Source of the DNA: Escherichia coli
GTDB lineage: Bacteria; Pseudomonadota; Gammaproteobacteria; Enterobacterales; Enterobacteriaceae
DNA: 40,549 nucleotides
Reading direction: 5' to 3' (one strand)
NCBI RefSeq assembly: GCF_003334765.1
Contig: NZ_QOWT01000035.1
Of the stretch, positions 1 to 18,737 are shown piece after piece. Numbering within the stretch: position 1 is the stretch's first letter; each line of letters begins with the position of its first letter. The notes below the pieces were generated by a model that saw only the letters and a program-made list of their open reading frames with translations, was not told the DNA's origin and searched no databases. The position numbers were made by a program, and so were the translations under genes.

Positions 1-102
1 GCTGAACTGTTGCTGGAAGACTACAAAGCCTCCCTGAAATATCTCAGCGATCACCCGAAACTGCAGGGTATTGCCCAACAGAACAGCTTTAAACATACCT
101 GA
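1..102 (+). CDS. gadB: glutamate decarboxylase beta, 3' end only (N-terminus lies upstream of window)
   Basis: Frame 1 translation of 1..99 reads [33 protein letters not shown] followed by TGA at 100-102, matching the GadB C-terminus as I recall it; gadC follows immediately. Confidence 0.85.
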
Positions 103-257
103 TAACGTTTAACGGTAACGGTGTCCCGAAACGAACCCGTTTCGGGACAATTTCCAAAGTCTGTTCACTGGCATTAGCAACGGAAAGTATTGTTCTGAAT
201 ACGCTTCAGAACAAAACAGGTGCGGTTCCGACAGGAATACCGTTTTAGGGGGATAAT

Positions 258-1793
258 ATGGCTACATCAGTACAGACAGGTAAAGCTAAGCAGCTCACAT
301 TACTTGGATTCTTTGCCATAACGGCATCGATGGTAATGGCTGTTTATGAATACCCTACCTTCGCAACATCGGGCTTTTCATTAGTCTTCTTCCTGCTATT
401 AGGCGGGATTTTATGGTTTATTCCCGTGGGACTTTGTGCTGCGGAAATGGCCACCGTCGACGGCTGGGAAGAAGGTGGTGTCTTCGCCTGGGTATCAAAT
501 ACTCTGGGGCCGAGATGGGGATTTGCAGCGATCTCATTTGGCTATCTGCAAATCGCCATTGGTTTTATTCCGATGCTCTATTTCGTGTTAGGGGCACTCT
601 CCTACATCCTGAAATGGCCAGCGCTGAATGAAGACCCCATTACCAAAACTATTGCAGCACTCATCATTCTTTGGGCGCTGGCATTAACGCAGTTTGGTGG
701 CACGAAATACACGGCGCGAATTGCTAAAGTTGGCTTCTTCGCCGGTATCCTGTTACCTGCATTTATTTTGATCGCATTAGCGGCTATTTATCTGCACTCC
801 GGTGCCCCCGTTGCTATCGAAATGGATTCGAAGACCTTCTTCCCTGACTTCTCTAAAGTGGGCACCCTGGTAGTATTTGTTGCCTTCATTTTGAGTTATA
901 TGGGCGTAGAAGCATCCGCAACCCACGTCAATGAAATGAGCAACCCAGGGCGCGACTATCCGTTGGCTATGTTACTGCTGATGGTGGCGGCAATCTGCTT
1001 AAGCTCTGTTGGTGGTTTGTCTATTGCGATGGTCATTCCGGGTAATGAAATCAACCTCTCCGCAGGGGTAATGCAAACCTTTACCGTTCTGATGTCCCAT
1101 GTGGCACCAGAAATTGAGTGGACGGTTCGCGTGATCTCCGCACTGCTGTTGCTGGGTGTTCTGGCGGAAATCGCCTCCTGGATTGTTGGTCCTTCTCGCG
1201 GGATGTATGTCACAGCGCAGAAAAACCTGCTGCCAGCGGCATTCGCTAAAATGAACAAAAATGGCGTACCGGTAACGCTGGTCATTTCGCAGCTGGTGAT
1301 TACGTCTATCGCGTTGATCATCCTCACCAATACCGGTGGCGGTAACAACATGTCCTTCCTGATCGCACTGGCGCTGACGGTGGTGATTTATCTGTGTGCT
1401 TATTTCATGCTGTTTATTGGCTACATTGTGTTGGTTCTTAAACATCCTGACTTAAAACGCACATTTAATATCCCTGGTGGTAAAGGGGTGAAACTGGTCG
1501 TGGCAATTGTCGGTCTGCTGACTTCAATTATGGCGTTTATTGTTTCCTTCCTGCCGCCGGATAACATCCAGGGTGATTCTACCGATATGTATGTTGAATT
1601 ACTGGTTGTTAGTTTCCTGGTGGTACTTGCCCTGCCCTTTATTCTCTATGCTGTTCATGATCGTAAAGGCAAAGCAAATACCGGCGTCACTCTGGAGCCA
1701 ATCAACAGTCAGAACGCACCAAAAGGTCACTTCTTCCTGCACCCGCGTGCACGTTCACCACACTATATTGTGATGAATGACAAGAAACACTAA
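258..1793 (+). CDS. gadC: glutamate:GABA antiporter (APC family), 511 aa
   Basis: 511-aa ORF with multiple hydrophobic transmembrane segments, recognised as GadC; GGG RBS-like sequence just upstream of ATG; located directly downstream of the gadB 3' end. Confidence 0.95.
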
Positions 1794-1818
1794 CCATGTC
1801 TGAATGGTTATAAGACAA

Positions 1819-1846
1819 GGGAGCGATAATTCATCGCTCCCTTTTT
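1819..1846 (+). terminator. rho-independent terminator downstream of gadC
   Basis: Perfect 9-bp inverted repeat GGGAGCGAT / ATCGCTCCC with 5-nt loop followed by TTTTT, 26 bp after the gadC stop. Confidence 0.75.
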
Positions 1847-1923
1847 CGTGCTTGCTGTCGTATTGACTTAACGGGGATAAGTACGAGAATGAGCGCACAT
1901 CTGTTTACCGGAAACCAGCACAT

Positions 1924-3243
1924 ATGGATATCTGCTCCCGAAACAAGAAATTAACGATTAGAAGACCAGCGATACTAGTTGCACTGGCACTTTTACTGTG
2001 TAGTTGTAAAAGCACGCCTCCAGAGTCCATGGTGACACCACCAGCAGGTTCAAAGCCACCAGCCACGACGCAACAATCGTCACAACCGATGCGTGGCATC
2101 TGGCTGGCCACGGTTTCTCGGCTCGACTGGCCACCGGTTTCCTCGGTTAACATTAGTAACCCCACCAGCCGGGCCCGTGTACAACAACAGGCGATGATCG
2201 ACAAACTGGATCATCTGCAACGTCTCGGCATAAACACGGTCTTTTTCCAGGTCAAGCCGGACGGTACCGCCCTGTGGCCATCGAAAATTTTGCCGTGGTC
2301 CGATCTTATGACCGGTAAGATTGGTGAAAATCCGGGTTACGATCCGCTGCAATTTATGCTCGACGAAGCCCACAAGCGTGGGATGAAAGTACACGCCTGG
2401 TTTAACCCCTATCGCGTATCGGTTAATACGAAGCCCAGTACTATCAGGGAACTGAATAGCACTCTGTCTCAACAACCGGCGAGCGTCTATGTGCAACACC
2501 GCGACTGGATCAGAACGTCTGGCGATCGCTTTGTCCTCGACCCGGGCATCCCTGAGGTTCAGGACTGGATCACATCAATAGTCGCAGAAGTGGTTTCCCG
2601 CTATCCCGTAGATGGCGTGCAGTTTGACGACTATTTCTATACGGAGTCACCGGGTTCACGGCTAAATGATAACGAAACGTACCGTAAATACGGAGGCGCA
2701 TTTGCGTCAAAAGCAGACTGGCGGCGCAACAATACTCAGCAGTTAATTGCAAAGGTATCGCACACCATTAAAAGCATTAAGCCGGGAGTCGAATTTGGTG
2801 TTAGCCCGGCAGGCGTGTGGCGTAACCGATCACACGATCCGCTCGGTTCCGATACCCGAGGCGCGGCAGCCTATGACGAATCCTACGCTGACACCCGTCG
2901 ATGGGTGGAACAAGGATTGCTGGATTACATTGCTCCCCAAATTTACTGGCCGTTCTCACGGAGTGCCGCGCGTTATGACGTGTTGGCAAAATGGTGGGCG
3001 GATGTCGTTAAACCGACCAGGACCCGCCTGTATATCGGTATCGCCTTCTATAAAGTGGGTGAACCTTCAAAGATAGAGCCAGACTGGATGATTAACGGCG
3101 GCGTACCGGAACTGAAAAAGCAGCTCGATCTTAACGATGCTGTGCCCGAAATTAGCGGCACCATCTTGTTCCGTGAGGACTATCTGAATAAACCGCAGAC
3201 TCAACAAGCGGTCAGCTATCTGCAAAGTCGCTGGGGCAGTTAA
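1924..3243 (+). CDS. yddW: glycoside-hydrolase-like lipoprotein YddW (DigH), 439 aa
   Basis: 439-aa ORF with an N-terminal signal sequence ending in a Cys-containing lipobox-like motif (LALLLCSC); recognised as YddW; position between gadC and dosC as in K-12. Confidence 0.88.
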   Translation: MDICSRNKKLTIRRPAILVALALLLCSCKSTPPESMVTPPAGSKPPATTQQSSQPMRGIWLATVSRLDWPPVSSVNISNPTSRARVQQQAMIDKLDHLQRLGINTVFFQVKPDGTALWPSKILPWSDLMTGKIGENPGYDPLQFMLDEAHKRGMKVHAWFNPYRVSVNTKPSTIRELNSTLSQQPASVYVQHRDWIRTSGDRFVLDPGIPEVQDWITSIVAEVVSRYPVDGVQFDDYFYTESPGSRLNDNETYRKYGGAFASKADWRRNNTQQLIAKVSHTIKSIKPGVEFGVSPAGVWRNRSHDPLGSDTRGAAAYDESYADTRRWVEQGLLDYIAPQIYWPFSRSAARYDVLAKWWADVVKPTRTRLYIGIAFYKVGEPSKIEPDWMINGGVPELKKQLDLNDAVPEISGTILFREDYLNKPQTQQAVSYLQSRWGS

Positions 3244-3606
3244 ACTCCCATTCTTACTTTGTAACAAGCCGGTGCTTTACCCACCGGCTTGTTACCCTCT
3301 TAAACTATCCCACTAATAATCATGCTTACTTAAGTCAAATTAACCACACTTAGTTAAACAGCCATAAATCCCTAATAAAAATGTATGAATATGAAAAACC
3401 ATACGATATTCGCTGTCACCGAAAAATAATTACGATGGGCTATACTCTTCTGAAGAACAGTAGCGTAGATTGAAACTGTCCTAAATCGCTTATTTCTTTT
3501 CAGTATATCTTCATATTTCAGGAGAATATGGTGCAGTTAGTCGATCTCGCACGTTGCGTTTCATTTTGATTCCGTCTGATTTCCCAGCCTTATAAGGGTG
3601 TGAATT

Positions 3607-14921: not shown

Positions 14922-14951
14922 TTCATAACCATCAGTCCTCAATGACGATTA

Positions 14952-14987
14952 AACACCATTGCCTGCGCAATGGTGTTTTTGTTTTTA
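14952..14987 (+). terminator. rho-independent terminator downstream of sra
   Basis: 11-bp inverted repeat AACACCATTGC / GCAATGGTGTT followed by TTTTTGTTTTT. Confidence 0.85.
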
Positions 14988-18349: not shown

Positions 18350-18737
18350 AAAAATGGCACTTTATAAAGCGCCATTTAGAACTGATGACAAACGCAACAT
18401 TGCCTGATGCGCTACGCTTATCAGGCCTACACGTTCACTGCAATCTATTGGATTTGAAGGGTTTTCATGCCGGATAAGGCGTTCACGCCGCATCCGGCAT
18501 GAACAAAGCCTACGTTGTCTACAATATAAAAATGACGCCTTTTACAGCGCCATTTGAAACTGATGACAAACGCAACATTGCCTGATGCGCTACGCTTATC
18601 AGGCCTACACGTTCACTGCAATCTATTGGATTTGAAGGGTTTTCATGCCGGATAAGGCGTTCACGCCGCATCCGGCATGAACAAAGCCTACGTTGTCTAC
18701 AATATGAAAATGGCGCCTTTTACAGCGCCATTTTCAG
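18350..18737. repeat. tandem array (~2.2 copies of a ~178-bp unit) containing REP palindromic units and terminator-like hairpins
   Basis: Directly visible: 18350-18527 and 18528-18705 are near-identical, and a third partial copy of the AAAATGGCGCC...GCGCCATTTT hairpin lies at 18706-18735. Each unit carries two REP-type palindromes (GCCTGATGCGCTACGCTTATCAGGCCTAC and GCCGGATAAGGCGTTCACGCCGCATCCGGCA). Confidence 0.9.

Follow-up and report, generated by a model that had tools for sequence, protein, structure and literature searches.

The main system by which E. coli resists extreme acid consists of GadB and GadC, whose operon is widely used in GABA production strains. In the E. coli contig analysed here (a window of 40,549 nucleotides, to which all positions refer), the two genes are separated by a spacer of 155 nt. 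A preliminary description of this DNA had noted a stem-loop in that spacer and suggested that it is an mRNA processing or stability element, or a partial terminator. What does such a hairpin do to the transcripts of the operon? We found no paper in the open-access literature that treats it, its sequence appearing only inside recombineering primers. gadB is unmentioned in the SMRT-Cappable-seq tables and in the tables of Dar and Sorek in PLoS Genetics, gadBC is absent from both the text and the tables of that survey of differential decay (PMC5927463), and the CsrA study of gad mRNAs deals with 5′ leaders only.

A perfect 12-bp stem-loop follows gadB

RefSeq annotation of the E. coli genome identifies the flanking genes as gadB and gadC, in agreement with the intergenic position first assigned to the element (Table 1). 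The gadB stop codon, TGA (100-102), is followed directly by a second in-frame stop, TAA (103-105); the same tandem (TGA TAA) closes gadA. The Shine-Dalgarno sequence of gadC, GGGGG, lies at 248-252.

The inverted repeat GTCCCGAAAC-GAACCC-GTTTCGGGAC is present as described, with arms at 123-132 and 139-148, and thus ends at 148, one base later than the 147 originally given. Its core stem begins at the 21st base past the gadB stop, as had been stated, and is indeed perfect over 10 bp, but that length is an understatement: RNA folding extends the helix by the pairs U122-A149 and G133-C138, giving a perfect 12-bp stem (122-133 with 138-149) that starts 20 nt past the stop codon and carries a 4-nt AACC loop.

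Table 1 Coordinates of features in the gadB-gadC region and of the hairpin behind gadA.
Feature	Position	Strand	Evidence
gadB CDS, 3′ end	1..102	+	Sequence, ORF list; RefSeq annotation, identical locus in BW25113
Hairpin 5′ arm, UGUCCCGAAACG	122..133	+	RNA fold, perfect-stem census; core of the preliminary description 123-132
Hairpin loop, AACC	134..137	+	Hypervariable within E. coli; 8 sampled variant alleles differ only at 133-137
Hairpin 3′ arm, CGUUUCGGGACA	138..149	+	RNA fold; E. albertii compensatory changes; pairing across 10 Escherichia sequences
Short tail, AUUU	150..153	+	Published Term-seq RNA 3′ end at 153 (MG1655 1570594, minus strand)
Second perfect 10-bp hairpin, AU-rich	190..214	+	Perfect-stem census, fold
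gadC CDS	258..1793	+	Sequence, ORF list, RefSeq annotation
Operon terminator 3′ of gadC	1817..1847	+	Hairpin then UUUUU; Term-seq 3′ end 1847 (MG1655 1568900)
gadA hairpin	L090 9477-9519, downstream of gadA in BW25113	minus	Sequence

The folding energy of the hairpin is -20.7 kcal/mol (z = -4.8), and none of 200 dinucleotide shuffles was as stable. When the 155-nt spacer was shuffled 20,000 times, a perfect stem of 12 bp never arose and one of at least 10 bp arose nine times. Our perfect-stem census of the entire 40.5-kb window returned only six perfect hairpins of at least 10 bp: two in the gadB-gadC spacer, one at the gadC terminator and one directly after digH among them. The three outside the spacer and the gadC terminator, of 12-14 bp, lie at 3261-3295, 14951-14978 and 18705-18736, the first of which begins 18 nt past the digH stop (3243); they are probably terminators or 3′-end hairpins of the neighbouring genes.

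A search of window positions 1-2000 against Rfam 15 (E ≤ 10) gave zero matches overlapping 100-260. A stem of 12 bp is too short for RNase III, and on that length we ruled out an RNase III site.

The hairpin has the GC-rich stem-loop of an intrinsic terminator in its 12-bp perfect stem. What follows the stem is different: where a terminator would have a U-rich tract of about 7-8 nt, the tail AAUUUCCA holds 3 U in 8 nt, all in the AAUUUCC region (AAUUUCCAAAG). The sequence shows no A-tract upstream of the hairpin, and a consensus terminator scan did not flag the site. Given this tail and the negative scan, the earlier remark that no U-tract is present was right, and because the U-tract is missing the hairpin is not a canonical intrinsic terminator.

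An RNA 3′ end lies immediately past the stem

In published Term-seq data, a steady-state RNA 3′ end maps immediately past this stable stem-loop. Among the curated 3′ ends in Supplementary file 1 of Adams et al. 2021 (eLife, PMC7815308) is one at MG1655 1570594 (minus strand), and that row gives the gadB hairpin as its flanking sequence. The 3′ end is the 51st base of the 61-base printed string, a convention that we checked on the rows for thrL and for the gadC terminator. On the window it falls at position 153, on the final U of AAUUU; A149 lies 4 nt before it, and the stem as first delimited ends 5 nt before it. In the M63-glucose OD 0.4 sheet (PMC7815308) it has an average read count of 33,816.8, about half of the 70,553 reads at the gadC terminator end (MG1655 1568900, window 1847) in the same sheet, 3′-end counts not being calibrated abundances. 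A lack of 3′ ends near 150, which would have told against the roles originally proposed, is contradicted by this end.

The end is thus already in a public table but unannotated, and Adams et al. 2021 (PMC7815308) leave it undiscussed in their text. There it is labelled an 'orphan' only because it lies 51 nt past the stop codon, the cutoff for a 'primary' 3′ end being 50 nt (PMC7815308). It is known from one growth condition of one data set: neither it nor the gadC terminator end is listed in the two LB Term-seq sheets (PMC7815308), and the absence of both gad ends would fit low gad expression in those cultures. The bicyclomycin data (LB, OD 0.5; PMC7815308) list zero regions near the gadBC locus.

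We consider it likely that a gadB-only mRNA is derived from the gadBC transcription unit and that its 3′ end is defined by the hairpin; if so, the 'orphan' 3′ end of the public table gains a simple explanation. The distance from stem to 3′ end is 4-5 nt at the gadB hairpin and 6 nt at the gadC terminator, and this similarity means that position cannot separate trimming from termination.

Could the element be chiefly a weak, partial intrinsic terminator? The hairpin would then form with AAUUU in the RNA-DNA hybrid, and a fraction of transcripts would be released at U151-U153 while the rest continue into gadC. The GC-rich 12-bp stem is in keeping with this, as is the position of the 3′ end, which coincides with the third of three consecutive U and, much as at the gadC terminator, comes a few nucleotides after the stem. 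The downstream sequence has no C-over-G bias of the kind expected for Rho loading (C/G 0.8-0.94 in windows over 150-327). Not being C-rich, it speaks against Rho loading in the spacer, for which we found the composition unsupportive, and thereby favours release without Rho. U-poor hairpins may also be inefficient intrinsic terminators (Dar and Sorek 2018, PMC6061677). Set against this are the mere three U in the first 8 nt and the negative terminator scan. The d-score of -24, where canonical terminators score above 0, points the same way but is weak evidence, the gadC terminator itself scoring -7.6 in E. coli with the same stem-calling routine; the d-score follows the d'Aubenton-Carafa formula. 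We take partial termination as the chief role seriously as a possibility, without holding it to be the probable one.

The stem is maintained within Escherichia

The hairpin element occurs at one place per genome in 5406 of 5426 complete E. coli genomes, never with more than two differences over 49 bases, and is unique within the window, which rules out a dispersed palindrome of the REP or BIME kind. Twenty complete genomes are without the spacer, and 5 of the 5407 E. coli spacer matches are on plasmid-labelled records.

Over the 49 bases that enclose the hairpin, 1812 of 5407 records (about a third) carry at least one difference from the window allele. We inspected eight variant alleles, sampled across the ranking from about 1800 variant records. 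In all eight the differences are confined to 133-137, the loop and its closing pair, and the other 11 pairs are untouched: the AACC loop of the window is replaced by AAGC, AACA or CACC, the last also in combination with G133A.

Across Escherichia species, the hairpin is the most variable part of an otherwise well-conserved spacer, with E. albertii differing in 13 of 30 hairpin columns versus 11 of 108 columns in the remaining spacer. The arms stay complementary all the same: standard pairs fill 95% of the cells in a ten-sequence Escherichia alignment of the hairpin, and E. albertii shows double, compensatory changes at three pairs (U-A to C-G once and A-U to G-C twice). Three double changes were reached in only 4 of 500 column shuffles, and slid controls gave 0-1. 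All three are in one lineage, E. albertii, and therefore represent one set of evolutionary events rather than three independent ones. Template-switch mutation in quasi-palindromes can give paired changes without selection and could have contributed here. Taken together, these alignments show selection on pairing, and what is selected appears to be the structure of the hairpin rather than its sequence. With the 3′ end at 153, this structure-preserving evolution supports the original suggestion of a processing or stability element or a partial terminator.

The same observations bear on a simpler reading, namely that the hairpin is a by-product or an insulator without effect on the expression ratio, and that 153 marks a decay intermediate such as would accumulate at any stable stem. 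In that case the structure might only separate the gadB and gadC translation units or fold the spacer. Exonucleases do stall at stable stems whatever their purpose (PMC5927463, PMC6061677), and the spacer contains a second perfect hairpin, at 190-214, for which no Term-seq 3′ end is listed. A structure of no consequence, however, sits poorly with a stem that stays constant across the sampled E. coli alleles as the loop changes, with compensatory changes that keep the pairing, and with a read count at 153 of the same order as that at the operon terminator. It also fits badly with the unrelated hairpins that most other gadB-gadC spacers have at this position, as does the region behind gadA (see below). 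We consider this reading improbable.

A perfect 12-bp inverted repeat whose complementary strand folds equally well could also act as DNA, either by binding a dimeric regulator at a palindromic site or by serving in recombination or cruciform formation. A protein site would conserve sequence, whereas the E. albertii arms change yet stay complementary, and the sequences that other genera carry there are altogether different. The element is moreover single-copy, and a sense-strand RNA 3′ end lies right behind it, all of which makes such a role highly improbable. To our knowledge, the hairpin does not resemble the 20-bp gad box.

Unrelated hairpins occupy the same place in other genera and behind gadA

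From one-genome-per-species contigs we collected 80 gadC loci, 68 of which have a same-strand upstream decarboxylase match reaching the C-terminus; the order decarboxylase-spacer-gadC holds in all 68. Eight of these measurable spacers are shorter than 40 nt, too short for the test, which was applied to the 60 spacers of at least 40 nt. Local structure was significant (p ≤ 0.05 against each spacer's own dinucleotide shuffles) in 41 of the 60, with about 3 expected by chance; the p-values, from 200 shuffles, have a floor of 0.005, and high-GC genomes contrast weakly with their shuffles. The 41 structured spacers come from 33 of 50 sequence clusters and share no sequence relationship with the E. 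coli hairpin. Their hairpins start at a median of 19 nt past the stop (interquartile range 14-35), and at least 12 nt past it in 35 of 41. As ribosome footprints indicate, an offset of about 19 nt is just outside the reach of a terminating ribosome.

Like the gadB hairpin, these 41 hairpins at the homologous position have a low-U tail and no preceding A-tract. The T fraction in their 8-nt tails is 0.35, compared with 0.31 in the whole spacer (p = 0.31), five or more T occur in only 4 of the 41 tails, and upstream of the hairpins A makes up a fraction of 0.27. Tails that are not U-enriched over background across genera argue against partial termination as the main function. A true U run behind the hairpin does occur in a few lineages, which would suit a terminator there: in Comamonas, and in Yersinia rohdei and Serratia sp. 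H1w, whose hairpins are just short of significance. In a control using the strongest hairpin behind gadC in the same 58 genomes, at least 5 T of 8 were found in 7 of 60 spacers versus 11 of 58 post-gadC regions (p = 0.31), a comparison blunted by folds that absorb A and U tracts into the stem and by the many genomes with another gene after gadC.

The paralog gadA presents a similar arrangement. Homology between gadA and gadB ends right past TGATAA, at about window position 106, and because of this the hairpins behind the two genes are unrelated in sequence. At the same offset past the near-identical TGATAA stop region, gadA, which lies upstream of gadX, is followed by a 15-bp hairpin (AACCGAAUGCCCAGC / GCUGGGCAUUCGGUU) that starts about 18 nt past the stop. 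It too has a strong stem and a tail, GCUUAUUAAU, without a clear U run. Read-through transcripts from gadA into gadX have been reported. Unlike the gadB hairpin, that of gadA has no 3′ end listed in the Term-seq table of Adams et al. 2021.

That hairpins unrelated in sequence recur at one offset in many genera is the one mildly new point here. It invites a broader idea, in which a U-less hairpin some 20 nt past the decarboxylase stop would be a selected, repeatedly re-invented device of gadB-gadC operons across Proteobacteria, one that fixes the amount of antiporter message per enzyme message or adjusts it to conditions; we regard this as speculative and rather unlikely. On this idea, the share of E. 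coli transcripts that stop at U153 might itself vary with pH or growth phase.

At the loci outside Escherichia (L008-L073), the decarboxylase beside gadC is about 51-64% identical to E. coli GadB, and GadC is about 69-81% identical to its E. coli counterpart. This is the reverse of what might be expected for an enzyme and a transporter, and it may in part reflect how the loci were selected, namely by a ranking on GadC similarity.

Comparison with known 3′ stem-loops and a proposed mechanism

In E. coli, one class of stable stem-loops lacks a uridine-rich tail, marks processed steady-state 3′ ends and is resistant to the exonucleases PNPase and RNase II (Dar and Sorek 2018, Nucleic Acids Res, PMC6061677). 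The gadB hairpin is like these protective structures in its stability, in the 3′ end directly downstream, in its U-low tail and in having no upstream A-tract, and by analogy it may likewise block PNPase and RNase II. The members of that class stand at the ends of Rho-dependent units with a mild downstream C-over-G bias, whereas the gadB hairpin lies between two genes of one operon and the sequence past it is not C-rich.

Its placement is instead that of an intercistronic stabiliser: it occupies the spacer behind the promoter-proximal gene, within a co-transcribed operon. In the model of differential operon decay, the segment of the first gene owes its stability to a hairpin behind it, as with malE-malF (Dar and Sorek 2018, PLoS Genet, PMC5927463). 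Like the REP hairpin of malE-malF, the gadB hairpin is located behind a promoter-proximal, highly needed gene, and in both cases an enzyme or binding protein is followed by a membrane transporter. By this analogy, one would expect a stable upstream segment and a scarcer distal gene for gadBC as well. Unlike the malE-malF hairpin, that of gadB is single-copy and not a REP element.

With the canonical Rho-independent terminator of gadC (1817-1847), the gadB hairpin shares GC-richness, a similar energy and a 3′ end a few nucleotides past the stem on a U. It differs in having three U instead of a 5-8-nt U run, in the absence of an A-tract and in going unflagged by the scan; moreover, the gene past it belongs to the same operon and must be expressed. 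The gadB hairpin is therefore no canonical intrinsic terminator, REP element or Rfam family, and judged by analogy it resembles the known U-less protective stem-loops and intercistronic stabilisers.

We infer the route that makes the 3′ end, and its effect on the GadB:GadC ratio, as follows. RNA polymerase would start at the gadB promoter, and part of the transcripts would reach the terminator past gadC, with their 3′ end at 1847. A second transcript population would end at U153, just beyond the 12-bp hairpin. The hairpin would serve mainly as a barrier against 3′-to-5′ exonucleases (PNPase, RNase II): transcripts cut or prematurely ended downstream would be trimmed back to it, the gadB segment surviving and the gadC segment being lost. 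The AAUUU tail may in addition let a minority of polymerases terminate directly. Either route would yield more gadB than gadC message, which would suit an abundant cytosolic enzyme and a membrane antiporter. Trimming and direct termination are not exclusive: a hairpin that defines the 3′ end may hold back exonucleases, terminate transcription weakly or do both, and we lean slightly towards the barrier.

If the hairpin sets the gadB-only message, constructs with and without the spacer would differ in their enzyme-to-transporter ratio. Most likely the hairpin provides gadB with a stable message of its own, an ordinary, well-known kind of operon tuning. It would add one clear cross-genus example to the known rule that U-tract-less hairpins shape mRNA levels within operons, and leave the rule unchanged.

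The downstream part of the spacer

An internal promoter for gadC was considered and rejected: the sole promoter-like match, at 228-257, would start transcription inside gadC, and the number of matches did not exceed that in shuffles. The second perfect hairpin of the spacer, UUGUUCUGAA-UACGC-UUCAGAACAA, is located about 45 nt before the gadC start and has a folding energy of -12.4 kcal/mol (z = -4.2). In E. whittamii and E. albertii its stem has gained mismatches without compensation.

In a fold of 150-262, AUUUCC (150-155), behind the first hairpin, pairs with GGGGAU (249-254) in the Shine-Dalgarno region of gadC. The modelled pairing, a helix of just 6 bp that includes two G-U pairs, could sequester the ribosome-binding site of gadC.

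Motifs resembling RNase E sites (R-N-W-U-U) are present at 149, 171, 187 and 242. Around the mapped 3′ end, U153, C154 and C155 are invariant across six Escherichia sequences.
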